Source of the DNA: Sandaracinaceae bacterium
Lineage (GTDB): Bacteria; Myxococcota_A; Polyangia; Polyangiales; Sandaracinaceae
Assembly (NCBI GenBank): GCA_044220955.1
Contig: JBGAQA010000005.1
Location: forward strand, 9,897 to 73,896
Length of the DNA stretch: 64,000 bases
Reading direction: 5' to 3'
This document shows, piece after piece, positions 3,001 to 12,000 of the stretch. Positions within the stretch are counted from its first letter, which is position 1. Each line of letters begins with the position of its first letter. A program made the position numbers.

Positions 3001-6000
3001 GCCGATGACGCTCCGCCCCAAGGAGTCGCTCGCGATCATGAACGGTACGAGCGTGATGAGCGCGCTCGGCTGCCTCTCGTGGATGCGCGCCCGGAAGCTC
3101 GCTCGCTTCACCGCGACGCTCACGGCGATGGCGTCCGACGTGCTGCACGGCGTGGCCGCGCACTTCGACGACCGCATCTACGAGCTCAAGCCGCACCCCG
3201 GTCAGCGCGTGCTCGCCCGCTGGATCCGCGAGCGCGTGCATCAGCAGAACCCGCCGGCTCGCGTTCAGGACCGCTACTCCGTGCGCTGCGCGCCGCACGT
3301 CGCCGGGCTCGTGCTCGACTGCCTCGGCTGGACGCGCCAGATGCTGGAGACGGAGCTGCACGGGATCAACGACAACCCGATCATCGAGGGGATCGGCCCC
3401 GAGGCGCCCGAGGGCCGCGTGATGCACGGCGGCAACTTCTACGGCGGGCACGCCTGCCTCGTCACCGACACGCTGAAGAACGTCGTCGCGAACGTGGGCG
3501 ACCTGCTCGACCGGCAGGTGGGGATGATGTGCAACCCCGCGACGAACGCGGGCCTGCCGGCGAACCTCGTGGCGCGCACCGGCGCCGATCGCCCGACGCA
3601 CCACGGCTTCAAGGCCATGGAGATCAGCGCGAGCGCGCTCGCCGCCGAGGCGCTCAAGATGAGCATGCCAGCGAGCGTCTTCTCGCGGAGCACCGAGAGC
3701 TACAACCAGGACAAGGTGTCGATGGGCACCATCAGCGCGCGCGAGTGCGTGCGCGTCCTCGACCTCGTCGAGACGATCGCCGTGATCCACCTGCTGACGG
3801 TGGTGCAGGCGGTCGATCTGCGCGGCCCCGGCCACTGCCACCCGAGGAGCGTCGAGATGCGCGACGCGGTCCGCGCCAGGATCCCGATGAACACCGCCGA
3901 CCGCCGCATGGACGTGGACATCAGCGCCGTGCTCGAGATGTACCGAGCAGGCGCGCTGCCCATCGGTGAGATCGACTTCGAGACCGGACCGACCTCCGCG
4001 TGACGCCGCGCGGAACGGGGCCGGGGGCCGGGGATCGTCAGCGGATGTGCTGAACCTCGGGCACGACGTTGCCGTCCACCTTGATCGCGCAGCTGCCGTC
4101 GGTGAACGGGCCGTCGCCGATGCCGAGGATCACGTGCACGTCGACCGCCTTGCCGTTCAGCTCGGCGCTGCCGTGGAGCTCGCCGATGCCGATGAAGGAC
4201 CAGGCGCGGCGCGCGATCTCGTGGCCGTCCCACTCGATGCTGAAGCCGCGCGTGATCTCGTTGCGGGCCACGGTGATGTTGTGCCCCTCGTACTTGGCTT
4301 CCCAGCGAGTCGCGATCAGTCCCATGTCCAACCCCTCCAGCCCCGCGGACGCTACCACGATGCGCGGGTGCTAAGGTGCCGCGTCATGAGAGACGATGCG
4401 GAGCGGGTCGAGCCCATCACACGCGAGCTGCGCGAGCGCGCACCGGACGGGGCGACCACGGTCGATCTGCAGGTGCCCTTCCACGACTGCGACCCGCTCT
4501 TCGTCGCTTGGCACGGCTGGTACTACAAGTACTTCGAGATCGCCCGCTGCGCGCTCTTCGCCGCGCACCGCATCGACGTGCCCGACATGATCCCGCTCAA
4601 GCTCGGCCTCTACGTGATCGAGACCCGAGCGCGGCACGTCGGCACGCTGCGCTACGGCGACAAGTTCCGCGTCGCGGCCTGGTTCACCGAGTGGCTGGCG
4701 CGCATCTCGGTCGCCTACGAGATCCAGAACCTCACCACGGGCAAGCGCGCCGCGCGAGGCAAGACGGTGCTGGTGACGACGCGCCGCGCGCACCACGGGA
4801 CGCTGGCGTCTCCGGACGCTCCGCGTCCAGGCGAGGACGAGATGCTCTTCGAGACACCCGAGGTGCTGATCGAGCGCATCGTGGCACCCCCGATCGCGCG
4901 ATGAACACCTCCGGCCCCAGCCCCGTCCAAGGGGGCGTGCCCCGCCTCGTCGCCGCCGCGCTCGCGCTGGTCCTCGTCGCCGCCGCCTTCACACCCTGCG
5001 GGTCTGCGTCCGCGCAGACCGCACCCACGCTCGACTCGGTGCTCCGGCGCTTCGCGTCGATCGAGGGGCTGACCCTCTCGTTCCACGAGGAGAAGCGCAT
5101 CGCGCTGCTCACGATGCCGCTCTCGACCGACGGCACGCTCGCGTACTCCCGCCCGGGTCGCCTCGCGAGGCGGGCCAGCGGCCAGGTCGTGCTCATCGAC
5201 GGCGCGTCACTGCGCATGGCCGACGGCGGGCACGAGCAGCACATCGATCTCGCCTCGCAGCCCGTCGTGCGCAGCTTCGTCGACTCGTTCCGAGCGCTGC
5301 TGGCTGGAGAACGCGCGGCCCTCGAGCAGAGCTACGTGATCTCGTTCGCGACGACGGCGCCCGACTGGACGATCACGCTCACGCCGCGCGGAGCGCCGCT
5401 GAGCGAGTTCCTCGCCAGCATCGTGTTCGTCGGCCACGGCGACGCGCTCGTCTCGATGACGATGAGCGAGACGAGCGGCGACGTCACGACCACGACGTTC
5501 TCGAACGTGGACGATCACCACCGCTTCAGCGCGGAGGAGTCGGCCCGCGTCTTCGACATCCGCTGATCGCGAGTCCCGCTCGCGCGTTCAGGCGCCCGAG
5601 TCGGGAGCCGGGACCGCTCCATACGCGGGAGCCGGACCGCCCGCGTCGTCCGCTGGCGCGCCGTACGCCGGCGCGGTGTTCCCCGCGTCGGATCCGGCGT
5701 CGATCGGGGGGCCGCCGTACATCGCGAGCATGCCCGAGTCGTTGCCAGGCGTGCCCATGTCGGCCGTGGGCATGCCGGTGTCGGCCGGCGCGCCGTACGC
5801 GGGCGCGATCCCCGAGTCGGTGCCCGGCGTGGTGGCGCCCCCGCATCCAGCGACGCTGGTCGCGATCGCGGCGCCGAACGCGAACGTCGCGGCGCGACCG
5901 AGGCGCTGCATCGGCTGCGCACGCTCCGGCACGCCCTCGAGGGCCAGGGCGCTGCCGCAGAACGGACAGCCGCTCTCGGAGCGGCGGACGTGACGCGAGC

Positions 6001-9000: not shown

Positions 9001-12000
9001 GCCGCGCCTTGCCGGCGCGCGAGCCGCAGTGCCGGCACGCGAGGTCGCACGCGAGCGTGATCTCCCAGACCGCGTAGATGGGCCGCACGCGCTCGTCGAT
9101 CGGGCGCGCCTCGTCGGCGAGCGGAAGCTTGCGCTTGGCCGGCTTGGCGAGAGGGGCGAGCGGCAGGTGGCGAGGGCGCGGCGCCTTGGCGAGACGCTCG
9201 CGCTCCTCGGGGCTGATCGGGGAGTTGGCCATGACGAGAGGGTATCCCCCTCGCGCCGAGCGGAGGGAGCGGACAGAGCGCAGGAGCGAAGCGACGTAGC
9301 GGCGGGAGCGAGCGCAGCGAGGAAGCGGAACGAGGGGCGGGACCCGGTCGGCTCCGCCGAACGGGAGGGGCCGCGTATCGGCCCCGGAAGACTAGAAACG
9401 CCAGCCGAGCGCGATTCGTCCCTCGGGCACGAAGCCGTAGCTCGTGATCGAGCTGGCGATGCGTCCCTCGATCTCCGCGACCGCGGGCGCCTCCTCGCGC
9501 ATCGCGGCCGGCACGTCGAGGTGCGCGCTCGATCCGAGCGTGAAGGTGCCACCGACGCCGATGCGCAGGACGAGGTGGTCCGCGATCACGAAGCGCCAGC
9601 CGAGCTCGGCGCTCATCGCGTGGACCATCACGTGCAGCTGCGTGGTGTCGAACCCGCTGTACGCGAAAGACTGCCCGGTGACCGTCTCGAGCATCCCGCG
9701 CGAGACGGTGGGCTGCGAGTACATGAGCGTGTAGCCAGCGAGGATCTCGAGCCCGGCGTCGGGGACCGGCCGCATGCCGGCCTGCAGACGAAACACCCCC
9801 GCGCTCCCGCCGATGGCCGAGACGAGCGAGCGGGCCCCGGCGGTGCCGCCGTACGCCTGAACGAGCTCGCCGAGCCCGTCCGCGTACGGGTTGCCGCCCG
9901 CCATCACGTCGAGGAGGAACCGGCCCGGCGTCTCGACTCGAACGTTCGCACCGAGCACGGTCGGCGCCGCGGTCGCGACCATCACGTCCACCGCCCACTC
10001 GGACGGGGACAGGACACGCACCGGCGGGGCGAGCTGGTCCGCCCGATCGCCCGGCGCGACGCGCTGCGCCATGGCCGCTCCAGGCGAAAACACGGCGATC
10101 GCGAGCGCCAGGCTCACCGTCCACCGTGCCGAAGCGCGCCAGGGGCTCATCGGACGGCGGAGGGAGCAGGCTGCGTGCCACCGGTCAGTGCGAGGGCCGT
10201 TCCGGAAGCGCTGCGTCACCGGGGGTCCGTTGCCCGCACGAGGGCGGGCGTTCGCCGGGCCGCTACGTCAGAGCCGGGGACCGCGACCGCGGAGCGCGCT
10301 CCAGACCGAGAGCACGACGAGCTCTTCGCCTCGGACACAGTCGTAGACGTGGAAGCGTGTCTGCGTGAGCAGCAGGCGCCTCGTGCCCCCCCCCCGCGAG
10401 CCGCGGTAGGGCGCTCCGACGTGCGGCGTCTGCTAGAGCAAAGCCAACGCAGCGTCGATCTCGTCCAGGACGAGCTCGGGCGCATCCGTCCGGTGGTCTC
10501 GCCACCAGGCATGCACGCGCTCGATTTCGCGCCGAGCACGCGGCGTGAGCTTCGCTCGAAGCGACACGACGTCTACTTCGTGCGCGAGCGCAGGGATGCG
10601 AGGACCTCTCGCGCGTCCGAGAGTTCACCGCGGTCCGCCTGCGCGTACGACTCCTCGATCGACGCCTCGAGCGCCGCTCGGTCCGCGTGGTCGAGGTCGT
10701 CGTCGACGATCGCGAGGCTCACCACCAGGCCATCCGGCAGATCAGTGGGCTCGTCGACGAGCAAGCGGCCACCCTTCACCCGCGCGCGAACGGGTGCGTC
10801 GTGCTCTTCGACGACGTCCCCGCGCTCGCGGGCCATGGCTGCGACTGCCGGCTCCTCTCGCCCATGCACGATGGGGAGCGCGTCCCGCCCGGCGCCGTCG
10901 CAACCGAGGTCGCGCTCTGTTTCCTCTTCGAGGCCGACGTCCTGCCCCACCTCGCGCCGGGTACGGGCTTCCGCCTCTGGGAAGGACGGGTGATCGGGCA
11001 GGGGCGCGTGCTCCGGATCGGCGCGGAGCAGCCATCGCGGGCCTGCATTCCTGCATTCCTCGGCGGGAATTGCAGCGCTTTTCTCGCTTCCGGCCTCGAA
11101 ATACGCCGACCCTCCCGCGCGTAGTCCCGGGAGCCCCCATGCGCGCGTTCGCTTGGCCGTCCCCGCTCCTGCCCCTACCCTCCCTCACCCTGCCCTCGCT
11201 CGAGAGCAGCAGCGGGAGAACGACGCGCCTGCCCAGCCTCGAAGAACGCGCGGCGAGCGGCGACCGGCGGGCCCTCGAGCCCCTGCTGCGCGAGCACGCG
11301 CGCGCGATCTCCGAGCTCTGCCGCTGCCTCGCGGGGCCGGAGGACGGGCGCGACGCCGCGCAGGAGTCGCTCGAGAAGATCGTCGTCTCGATCGCGCGCT
11401 TCGATCCAGCCAAGGGCTCGTTCCGCGCGTGGGCGCTCGCGGTCGCGCGCAACACCTGCCGCGATCGTCTGCGCCGGCGCGGACTCGAGCGCCGGCTCTT
11501 CGTGGCCGAGACCGACGAGCCGATGGACCTGCCCGGCGACCAGCCCGACGTCGAGCGCACCGCGCTCGCCCGCATCGAGTCGGTGCGCCTGGCCGCCGCG
11601 CTCGAGACCTTGCCTGCGCCGATGCGCGCGGCGATCGTCCTGTTCCACGTGCACGAGTCCAGCTACGAGGAGATCGCTGCCGCGCTCGAGGTGCCGATGG
11701 GCACCGTGATGACGTGGCTGCACCGCGGGCGCAAGCGCCTGCGCATCGCGCTCGACGGCGAAGCGCCCGAGGGGGCGTCATGACGCTCCGCCCGCACGTC
11801 CTCGAGGCGCTCGCGCACGACCGGCTCGATCTGCTCACCGAGCAGGAGGGCGCCGAGGTCGAGGCCCTGCGCGAGCGCGATCCCGCGGCGCTCGAGCGCG
11901 CGATCGCGAGCGCGCGCGAGACCTCGCACGCCTTCACGCGCGCGCTGCCTCGGGCGGTCTCGGACGACGTGGACGTCGACGCGCTGGTCCGCACGGCGCT

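Follow-up and report, generated by a model that had tools for sequence, protein, structure and literature searches.

A putative two-component splicease system with zinc-ribbon-led, lipoprotein-like substrates in a Sandaracinaceae genome

The locus and its small proteins

The window analysed here is a stretch of 64,000 nucleotides from contig JBGAQA010000005.1 of a Sandaracinaceae bacterium. At 5588..9232 it contains a gene for a radical SAM (rSAM)/SPASM enzyme followed by five tandem paralogs, with all six genes on the minus strand; the span is the same as that of the six genes reported in a preliminary description of this DNA. The following features were identified.

7895..9232, minus strand: rSAM/SPASM enzyme, putative splicease-family (PlpX-like) maturase, 445 aa (Pfam and NCBIfam profiles, alignment)
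7389..7898, minus strand: putative substrate gene A, 169 aa; zinc ribbon, signal/lipobox TAGC, 3 YG sites
6985..7377, minus strand: putative substrate gene B, 130 aa; zinc ribbon, signal/lipobox VAAC, 2 YG sites
6496..6909, minus strand: putative substrate gene C, 137 aa; zinc ribbon, signal/lipobox APGC, 4 YG sites
6062..6490, minus strand: putative substrate gene D, 142 aa; zinc ribbon, signal/lipobox TTAC, 4 YG sites; partner in the complex model
5588..6028, minus strand: putative substrate gene E, 146 aa; zinc ribbon, signal/lipobox VAGC, 4 YG sites
6422..6475, minus strand: zinc ribbon of gene D, residues C6-C23, CPSCARHVRRTEAVCPFC; C6, C9, H12, C20 and C23 invariant in 87 sequences
6311..6313, minus strand: Cys60 of gene D, proposed lipobox cysteine, invariant in 87/87 sequences
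6149..6154, minus strand: Tyr113-Gly114 of gene D, site ALYGGPP, located in the enzyme barrel according to the complex model

Gene A has a GTG start that overlaps the stop codon of the enzyme gene by 4 nt (GTGA), and the gaps between the small genes, from A to E, are 11, 75, 5 and 33 nt. The GC3 of the called frames is 0.87–0.95. A length range of 118–169 aa had been given for the small proteins; the upper value was reproduced, but no copy of 118 aa was found and the shortest has 130 aa.

The association of the enzyme with these proteins is conserved. Of 51 related loci with a length of 11 kb or more, 48 have a zinc-ribbon cluster near the enzyme and 9 have the runner-up neighbour cluster; this agrees with the earlier view of a conserved enzyme–substrate pair. 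The same pairing was detected in most of 29 loci sampled phylum-wide, and such an enzyme (E ≤ 1e-100) is encoded in 77 of 301 Myxococcota genomes. A previous concern that many small genes lie far from the enzyme does not hold for the genome studied: it has a single enzyme of this kind and only five substrate copies (E ≤ 6e-33), all adjoining it.

Each small protein begins with a CxxC...CxxC zinc ribbon, followed by an Arg-led hydrophobic stretch of ~15 residues, an invariant Cys, and a disordered tail with two to four x-Tyr-Gly-[A/G]-Pro sites. The paralogs are 41–53% identical to gene A (alignment A1), and the invariant positions in this alignment are C8, C11, R13, H14, V15, R16, C22, P23, F24, C25 and the R43-G-R-A-A stretch. 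Genes A–E carry 3, 2, 4, 4 and 4 YG sites, respectively (17 in total), 16 of them of the xYG[AG][PV] type.

The YG pattern of the tails is far beyond chance. The complete zinc-ribbon ORFs, 116 in number and drawn from 82 loci, have 383 tail Tyr residues, of which 350 are followed by Gly, whereas shuffled tails (200 shuffles; tail Gly fraction 0.19) gave 70 YG on average and 88 at most. The consensus of the 350 sites is [P/A][L/A/V]-Y-G-[A/G/L]-P-P, with P (206) or A (102) at position −2, L (113), A (71) or V (50) at −1, A (171), G (84) or L (33) at +2, and P (277) at +3. These motifs are likely to be the target of the enzyme.

Enzyme family and probable chemistry

According to Pfam, the enzyme consists of a Radical_SAM domain (57-194) and a SPASM domain (293-358). 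It had been described as matching only a generic SPASM model; instead, scores of 516 bits with TIGR04103 (the PlpX/splicease family; cut-off 725) and 475 bits with TIGR03913 (cut-off 591.75) were obtained, each below the cut-off and over nearly the full length of the model. The TIGR04103 cut-off was reached by none of the 71 representatives scored. The remaining peptide-maturase models yielded at most 162 bits. We take TIGR04103 to be the same family as IPR026482. The Nostoc punctiforme protein P0360, a member above the TIGR04103 cut-off with 808.5 bits, shares 219 of 391 residues with the enzyme (56%, E 2e-154). In alignment A3, C62/C66/C69 and the SPASM residues C354, C357, C363 and C384 are invariant, and C293, C311 and C367 are conserved in at least 90%. 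A tree of 49 rows was constructed in IQ-TREE by a quick search with midpoint rooting, with experimentally tested enzymes labelled by family name at most; in it the clade of the window enzyme (SH-aLRT 99) joined the cyanobacterial TIGR04103 clade with a support of 95. PlpX has been assigned to IPR026482 (PMC11002830), and, judging by sequence, the window enzyme is a member of the family containing the known tyramine spliceases. Because of this close relationship (profile score, identity to the Nostoc member, shared clade), the operon would be a variant of a known system rather than a source of new chemistry, and the former designation as a new RiPP-like class cannot be retained.

It could also be supposed that the enzyme is a cofactor-type rSAM/SPASM protein, for example an AhbD-like haem synthase, with the small genes as unrelated neighbours. 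The top Swiss-Prot match in the preliminary description was of the AhbD type, and the enzyme scores 151 bits with TIGR04545, the model for AhbD; this is far under both the cut-off of that model (500) and the scores with the two peptide maturase models. In addition, no other neighbour accompanies the enzyme as the small genes do (48/51 loci), and the predicted complex described below passes its controls, making this explanation extremely improbable.

We consider it fairly probable that the operon encodes a two-component splicease (spliceotide-type) system acting on prolipoprotein substrates. X-Tyr-Gly is a known splice site (PMC11414181, PMC10849128), and one tested splice tag, that of PlpA, is GPIRPLYGLPI (PMC10533398 Table 1). 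Its P-L-Y-G-L-P segment matches the consensus of the 350 sites. Since the sites resemble this validated tag, tyramine excision leaving alpha-keto-beta-amino acids would, by analogy, be the likeliest chemistry. The YG[AG]P motifs had earlier been proposed as the place of cross-linking or another modification. They stand as the likely target; with a splicease-family enzyme and X-Tyr-Gly sites, though, the reaction is probably the known backbone splicing and not an unfamiliar cross-link.

A different radical reaction of the same enzyme–substrate pair at Tyr-Gly, such as Tyr cross-linking, cyclophane formation or epimerisation, appears distinctly unlikely. It would be compatible with scores that fall short of both equivalog cut-offs (TIGR04103 and TIGR03913), with a clade characterised from sequence alone, and with the diversity of rSAM/SPASM chemistry, the profile list including mycofactocin, PQQ, sactipeptide and WgkB models. 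None of the other peptide-maturase models exceeds 162 bits, however, and both the 56% identity to a true TIGR04103 member and the agreement of the consensus with a validated splice tag speak for splicing. Moreover, a three-residue cyclophane is formed by linkage onto the +2 side chain; 84 of the 350 sites have Gly, which lacks a C-beta, at +2, and therefore such a cyclophane cannot be general.

The known spliceotide systems include type I, with the tyramine spliceases PlpX/PlpY/PlpA and PcpXYA of Pleurocapsa, and the binary type II, with RhaX/RhaA, RcsX and RasX of Rheinheimera (PMC11414181, PMC11626197). The locus resembles them in the enzyme family, in X-Tyr-Gly sites within an adjacent precursor in a P-L-Y-G-x-P context like that of the PlpA tag, and in having multiple sites per precursor and multiple precursor genes per enzyme. 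It has no Y protein, like all non-cyanobacterial splicease systems according to PMC11414181. The differences are that the enzyme lies under the TIGR04103 cut-off, that the precursors carry a zinc ribbon and a lipoprotein-type signal at the N-terminus in place of a Nif11/NHLP leader, and that no dedicated protease or PCAT exporter is present in the locus. In addition, the products would stay lipid-anchored rather than be freed as peptides.

The zinc ribbon as a candidate docking module

The complex model of the enzyme with the gene D protein reached a score of 0.79 (runs 0.74, 0.86 and 0.79) against 0.08 for the best control, although it was built with its own alignments and riding ligands and is thus outside the calibration of the tool. 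Of 157 solved complexes, 116 attained this mark, as did 2 of the 215 pairs that were mismatched. The fold of the partner is uncertain (pLDDT 44–47), and contact sharing between runs was as low as 6%. In the best run, gene D residues 2-3, 5, 9-12 and 21 contact enzyme residues 274-280, 287, 289, 358-359 and 362, that is, the conserved YFGPYE stretch at 274-280 and a second region at 358-362. The role of the ribbon as a docking element, suggested previously, is thus consistent with its predicted position on conserved enzyme residues. Residues 109-118 of gene D also belong to the modelled interface, with Y113/G114 contacting enzyme residues 55, 131 and 312; AlphaFold2 models of spliceases likewise place the YG site in the barrel (PMC11414181, PMC11626197).

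According to the splicease reading, the cytoplasmic enzyme would bind the N-terminal ribbon of all five small proteins, the ribbon serving as a leader or activator. The disordered tail would then be threaded through the barrel, and every [P/A][L/A/V]-Tyr-Gly-[A/G]-Pro site would most likely lose a tyramine equivalent (−135.06 Da) by excision.

A similar ribbon occurs in TIGR03913 enzymes ('GDL motif peptide-associated radical SAM/SPASM maturase'), which share a homologous catalytic core with the window enzyme (475 bits; 50% identity to the true member P0129). A 77%-identical relative of the window enzyme, P0013, is named by NCBI as a TIGR03913-type maturase. The substrate ribbon is a homologue of the one at the C-terminus of these enzymes (hhalign 93%, E 2.9e-7), which is present in 43/43 full-length members, whereas at the present locus it is found on the substrates; in P0130 it occupies the N-terminus of the enzyme. 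The ribbon therefore appears, from its sequence distribution, to be a movable module. Experimentally, leader-independent enzymes have been obtained by attaching a leader or the Y protein to the splicease C-terminus (PMC11414181). Small LYG-bearing neighbours with a GDL motif were found in 9 of 43 TIGR03913-type loci, and none of those in the nine loci has a ribbon. These neighbours are short (57-66 aa) and helical, each with a single LYG and a GDL motif, and, unlike the small proteins studied here, they have neither a signal nor repeats. The window enzyme also falls under the TIGR03913 cut-off and into a different clade.

The putative export signal

In complete and partial ORFs taken together, the Cys after the hydrophobic core is present in 123/123, preceded by A or G in 117 and followed by G or S in 105. 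The uncharged run before it has a median length of 15 residues and begins after Arg in 114 of 123. In P0175, P0186, P0195 and P0209, a hydrophobic segment, a [G/A]-Cys and YG repeats share one polypeptide with the enzyme, to which they are directly joined; these fused relatives fix the topology as N-in, tail-out. LspA was identified in the genome (86.9 bits, above its cut-off). The earlier interpretation of the helix and invariant Cys as a lipoprotein signal that removes the leader therefore looks plausible from the conservation of the Cys and its −1 residue.

Rather unlikely, in our estimate, is the alternative that the small proteins are modified but remain bitopic membrane proteins, the segment being a permanent signal-anchor between a cytoplasmic ribbon and a periplasmic tail. 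In its favour, no more than 37 of the 123 ORFs conform to the classic lipobox regex [LVI][ASTVI][GAS]C, A (41) or T (23) being frequent at −3. The segment is also more conserved than is usual among signal peptides, and the N-terminal domain is long for an n-region. The constancy of the Cys and its flanking residues argues against an anchor, as do the uncharged run, short for a stable transmembrane helix, and the recurrence of the [A/G]-Cys context in the enzyme-fused forms.

For lipoprotein substrates, the Arg-led stretch of ~15 residues ending in [A/G]-Cys-[G/S] would work as a Sec/lipoprotein signal. The tail would be exported, the Cys lipidated, and signal peptidase II would cleave before it, removing ribbon and signal peptide together, so that a dedicated leader protease or transporter would be unnecessary. 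What remains would be an acidic and disordered peptide, anchored by its lipid and bearing two to four electrophilic ketoamide sites, which might have a role such as protease inhibition.

RiPP modification of lipoproteins, earlier regarded as novel, was published in 2026 (PNAS) for DAG-RiPPs, RiPP-lipoprotein hybrids with other enzymes whose precursors mature via the lipoprotein pathway (PMC13056109). There too, a cytoplasmic RiPP enzyme acts on a precursor whose signal peptide bears a lipobox Cys, and both lipidation of the precursor and loss of the leader occur through the general Lgt/LspA/Lnt pathway; lipidation is demonstrated for DAG-RiPPs, whereas for the window proteins we infer it (PMC13056109). 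The DAG-RiPP enzymes are MNIO proteins (ChrH/DybH, bufferin and oxazolin types) and not rSAM enzymes, the terms 'Radical SAM' and 'rSAM' having 0 occurrences in that article, and their signal peptides are described there without a zinc-ribbon extension (PMC13056109).

It is uncommon for a folded zinc ribbon of 45 residues to stand ahead of a lipoprotein signal. The region of the signal (RLGRAAxFAFGA) also shows an unusual degree of conservation, which may point to another role.

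Layout and conservation of the cassette

The cassette comprises a gene encoding a radical SAM/SPASM enzyme and five small paralogous genes (A–E) for its putative substrates. The positions of these genes and their neighbours are listed below.

Features of the cassette and its surroundings (coordinates along the window)
2399-4003, plus strand: aromatic amino acid lyase (PF00221, 1.6e-143), preceding the LolA-like gene
~4400-4904, plus strand: ORF without Pfam match, preceding the LolA-like gene
4886-5566, plus strand: LolA-like lipoprotein-carrier gene (PF19574, 1.4e-14), convergent with gene E and ~20 nt from its end
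5588-6028, minus strand: substrate gene E, 146 aa, zinc-ribbon paralog, 4 Tyr-Gly sites
6062-6490, minus strand: substrate gene D, 142 aa, zinc-ribbon paralog, 4 Tyr-Gly sites
6496-6909, minus strand: substrate gene C, 137 aa, zinc-ribbon paralog, 4 Tyr-Gly sites
6985-7377, minus strand: substrate gene B, 130 aa, zinc-ribbon paralog, 2 Tyr-Gly sites
7389-7898, minus strand: substrate gene A, 169 aa, zinc-ribbon paralog, 3 Tyr-Gly sites
7895-9232, minus strand: radical SAM/SPASM enzyme, 445 aa
9392-10219, minus strand: ORF of 275 aa without Pfam match, signal-peptide-like N-terminus, upstream of the enzyme
10573-10950, minus strand: ORF without Pfam match, also upstream of the enzyme
11100-11783, plus strand: ECF-type sigma factor (Sigma70_r2/r4)
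11783-13483, plus strand: long ORF without Pfam match, repeated 'VVTMGGD' stretches and hydrophobic segments

The GTG start of gene A shares four bases with the TGA stop of the enzyme gene, and the remaining gaps between genes A–E are 11, 75, 5, and 33 nt, an arrangement suggestive of a single operon of six genes. The GC3 of the called frames is 0.87–0.95, the value expected of real genes at the 70–75% GC of the surrounding DNA. Alignment of the five small proteins revealed an invariant CxxC-RHVR...CPFC zinc ribbon at the front, followed by a conserved R-x-G-R-A-A-x-F stretch, a Cys, and an Ala/Gly/Pro/Asp-rich tail. The six genes, ribbon, Cys, and Tyr-Gly (YG) tails of the preliminary description were thus found again at this span, except for a copy of 118 aa, which is absent. 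Near-identical DNA to positions 5588-9232 occurs in activated-sludge, sludge, and bioreactor metagenomes of several studies; no RNA dataset was present among the sequencing runs listed for that DNA.

The genome scan reported previously for the enzyme (567 relatives, best 80 kept) was reproduced, and in most of these best 80 of 567 loci, zinc-ribbon ORFs begin ~30–130 nt past the enzyme gene. Neighbours were additionally clustered using every segment between stop codons that spans 90 aa or more in 51 loci of 11 kb or longer. Zinc-ribbon proteins formed a cluster present in 48 of these loci, and the next cluster was present in 9, with frame shadows of the enzyme set aside. A third conserved gene (Y protein/RRE, protease, or exporter) was sought in the same 51 loci and none was detected. 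The pairing of enzyme and substrate is therefore conserved and two-component. According to the available text of PMC11414181, the Y protein is absent from every splicease system outside the cyanobacteria, and a cassette without a conserved Y protein fits this pattern.

Across the phylum, an enzyme of this kind was found at E <= 1e-100 in 77 of the 301 Myxococcota genomes sampled, and none of these enzymes exceeds the TIGR03913 cut-off. Most of 29 loci drawn phylum-wide have zinc-ribbon/YG ORFs beside the enzyme, at times upstream. The cultured Sandaracinus amylolyticus has a related enzyme (P0027) that is 76% identical to that of the window. The genome from which the window originates (88% complete) contains one such enzyme, and the substrates found in it at E <= 6e-33 are the five adjacent copies only, all other matches having E >= 1e-4.

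As for the flanking genes, neither the lyase/ORF/LolA-like set, including the LolA-like gene next to gene E, nor the ORFs at 9392-10219 and 10573-10950 are conserved with the cassette in the related loci that were clustered. The ORF at 11783-13483 may encode an anti-sigma or membrane protein; no link between the sigma factor/ORF pair (11100-13483) and the cassette was seen.

Relationship of the enzyme to known families

The window enzyme matches Pfam PF04055 (1.5e-21) and PF13186 (3e-8) and contains the motifs that define radical SAM/SPASM proteins, namely, CX3CX2C and a seven-Cys SPASM motif including CX2CX5CX3C. In an alignment of 52 enzyme sequences, C62, C66, C69, C354, C357, C363, and C384 are invariant, while C293, C311, and C367 are at least 90% conserved. 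The preliminary description mentioned a generic SPASM model as the sole NCBIfam match, which proved wrong: the enzyme scores 516 bits against TIGR04103 (cut-off 725; profile positions 3-383 of 412), which is named 'nif11-class peptide radical SAM maturase 3', and 475 bits against TIGR03913 (cut-off 591.75), which is named 'GDL motif peptide-associated radical SAM/SPASM maturase' and is likewise covered to near-full length.

NCBI-named cyanobacterial members of TIGR04103 served as references in place of PlpX. One of them, P0360 of Nostoc punctiforme, passes the TIGR04103 cut-off (808.5 bits) and is identical to the window enzyme at 219 of 391 positions (56%, E 2e-154). A maximum-likelihood tree, from a quick search and rooted at the midpoint, covered 49 family members; in it, the window clade (support 99) joined cyanobacterial TIGR04103 members, a second myxobacterial/acidobacterial type, and the related enzyme P0130 with a support of 95, and the TIGR03913-type enzymes formed a separate clade (support 97). 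Judging from these comparisons, the window enzyme is a close relative of TIGR04103 that falls below its cut-off and hence is no equivalog. TIGR04103 presumably corresponds to IPR026482 in InterPro. PlpX, the first tyramine splicease, has been assigned to IPR026482 and is found beside Nif11-type precursors (PMC11002830, part of the text available).

An AhbD-type haem b synthase was rejected as an assignment, with just 151 bits on TIGR04545 against a cut-off of 500. A search of solved structures with the window enzyme returned SkfB, PqqE, and a decarboxylase, with no splicease structure for comparison, and a cluster look-up gave almost no names.

The proximity to the TIGR04103/splicease family (516 bits; 56% identity to P0360) does not bear out the claim of a new RiPP-like class made for this span, and the cassette is most likely a variant of known spliceotide systems. 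In type I spliceotide systems, the Y protein (PqqD-like RRE) is separate and the precursor has a Nif11/NHLP leader, whereas the cassette has neither; Pfam and NCBIfam searches with the small proteins A–E gave no Nif11/NHLP or other family matches beyond weak zinc-ribbon ones. With no third conserved gene, the cassette is consistent with the binary splicease types described in the available text of PMC11414181. A survey of spliceases (Scott et al., Chem 2022) comprised 27 characterized and 939 predicted systems (PMC10533398) and traced YG-rich PlpX-like enzymes to 189 genera (PMC10849128), as far as the accessible parts of both sources state, and it may already include the zinc-ribbon precursor type. 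A literature search found no report of zinc-ribbon or lipoprotein splicease substrates; most subscription papers lie outside its range, so that unpublished status is not implied.

Tyr-Gly sites and putative signal region of the small proteins

In total, 123 zinc-ribbon ORFs, 116 of them complete, were gathered from 82 loci. The complete proteins contain no YG site in one case, one in 10, two in 30, three in 35, four in 27, five in 11, and six in two cases. Gly follows Tyr at 350 of their 383 tail tyrosines, with a Gly fraction of 0.19 in the tails; 200 shuffles gave a mean of 70 and a maximum of 88 YG pairs versus the 350 observed. The site consensus is [P 206 / A 102]-[L 113 / A 71 / V 50]-Y-G-[A 171 / G 84 / L 33]-[P 277]-[P 213]. 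The X-Tyr-Gly splice motif by which a spliceotide precursor is recognised is accordingly present beside the window enzyme, with 17 sites in A–E. A tested tag from PlpA has the sequence GPIRPLYGLPI (PMC10533398, Table 1, in the part available). On sequence grounds, the tail tyrosines occur almost solely within P-L-Y-G-x-P sites, a context that PlpX accepts.

A Cys stands directly past the hydrophobic core in all 123 ORFs. The uncharged run ahead of it is 15 residues long at the median and starts after Arg in 114 of 123. Position −1 to the Cys is Ala (71) or Gly (46) in 117 of 123 ORFs; at position +1, Gly occurs in 67 ORFs and Ser in 38 (together 105 of 123), but Asp in 2 only. The classic lipobox expression fits 37 of 123 and a loose one 106 of 123, position −3 frequently being Ala or Thr. 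Together, the Cys context and the run look like a lipoprotein signal, and with its median of 15 residues the run seems rather short for a helix that sits stably in the membrane. The genome encodes LspA. A Tat signal was dropped as a candidate because the window copies read R-L-G-R and have no twin arginine.

In four more distant relatives (P0175, P0186, P0195, and P0209), one polypeptide unites the enzyme with a hydrophobic segment, a [G/A]-Cys, and YG repeats. Since the Fe-S enzyme of these fused proteins must stay cytoplasmic, they settle the orientation, with the docking part inside and the tail outside. Enzyme and substrate are thus in cis in these four proteins, some of which have Cys-rich CCxCxYG ends.

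The h-region of A–E (residues ~42–55) is unusually conserved for a signal peptide, with RLGRAAxFAFGA recurring. Over 87 aligned substrate sequences, R45 is invariant and A47 at least 90% conserved. The conserved signal region may also bind the enzyme or a specific export factor.

The zinc ribbon and the proposed maturation pathway

The complex of the enzyme with the gene D protein was modelled from their own alignments (52 enzyme and 87 substrate sequences) with SAM and three 4Fe-4S clusters included. The model scored 0.79 (runs 0.74, 0.86, and 0.79) versus 0.08 for the best control, in a set-up outside the calibration of the tool; in that calibration 116 of 157 solved complexes attained the score mark, versus 2 of 215 mismatched pairs. 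The pLDDT of the gene D partner was at least 44, and contact sharing between runs was at least 6%. Contacts in the best run join residues 2-3, 5, 9-12, and 21 in the ribbon of the gene D protein to enzyme residues 274-280, 287, 289, 358-359, and 362; enzyme residues 273-278 are a nearly invariant YFGPYE stretch in the alignment. Residues 109-118 of the gene D protein (AMALY113G114GPPQ) lie in the modelled barrel against enzyme residues 55, 131, and 312. The model supports binding of the ribbon to the enzyme without showing it.

TIGR03913-type enzymes bear a ribbon at the C-terminus, in 43 of 43 full-length cases fetched from metagenomes, and hhalign aligns the substrate ribbon with it over 29 columns (93% probability, E 2.9e-7). 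In P0130, the same kind of zinc ribbon is located at the enzyme N-terminus, followed by a Pro-rich linker, and represents a third placement. Independently of the complex model, these similarities indicate that the ribbon is a movable module. Fusion of the leader or Y protein to the splicease C-terminus has been shown experimentally to give a leader-independent enzyme (PMC11414181, available text), and by analogy, the natural ribbon-to-enzyme fusion seems to be the same move.

Sequence comparison establishes the gene pairing, the enzyme family, the YG motif, and the context of the Cys, and the binding is modelled, whereas we infer splicing, lipidation, and any protease-inhibitor role. In the likeliest pathway, the zinc ribbon would dock the nascent or complete precursor onto the enzyme, and the YG sites would be spliced in the cytoplasm. 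The signal would then lead the unfolded tail through Sec, and Lgt, LspA, and probably Lnt would lipidate the Cys and cut away the ribbon together with the signal. Tested spliceotides inhibit serine and cysteine proteases (PMC11626197, part of the text available).

As a tentative joint reading, to which we give a rather low probability, the envelopes of many Myxococcota would be coated with lipid-anchored disordered peptides bearing several alpha-ketoamide warheads from backbone splicing. These would act as tethered covalent protease inhibitors or reactive handles, perhaps for self-protection of protease-secreting predators. On this reading, the ribbon lies within the n-region of a lipoprotein signal and would represent a novel type of RiPP leader/activator, removed by signal peptidase II and shifted in evolution between substrate and enzyme (C-terminus in TIGR03913, N-terminus in P0130), with the whole enzyme replacing it in other relatives. 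If the likeliest pathway given above is right, backbone splicing would extend past small secreted peptides to ketoamides in envelope lipoproteins of a whole phylum, and the system would unite spliceotides with RiPP-lipoprotein hybrids, both recently described. Just two gene types would then be needed because the host lipoprotein machinery handles leader removal and export. A ribbon on either substrate or enzyme is a natural counterpart of engineered leader-to-enzyme fusions that give leader-independent spliceases, and it could supply a compact docking tag for protein engineering.

The precursors of DAG-RiPPs, which are modified by MNIO enzymes, were demonstrated in 2026 to mature via the lipoprotein pathway (PMC13056109); the available part of that paper makes no mention of radical SAM enzymes, the class to which the cassette enzyme belongs.

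TIGR03913 systems differ from that of the window in three features, namely, an enzyme above 591.75 bits, its C-terminal ribbon, and an LYG...GDL neighbour. The window enzyme has no CxxC pair at its C-terminus, and no GDL motif was found in the window substrates or in neighbours of related enzymes. Small LYG-bearing neighbours with a GDL motif were found in 9 of 43 TIGR03913-type loci; these are helical proteins of 57–66 aa without a ribbon. In loci L132-L134, L148, L153, L157, L200, and L206, an N-terminal (P/I)LYG is followed by GDL ~10 residues later, with PMYMAT replacing LYG in L157 and two GDL peptides in tandem in L206.
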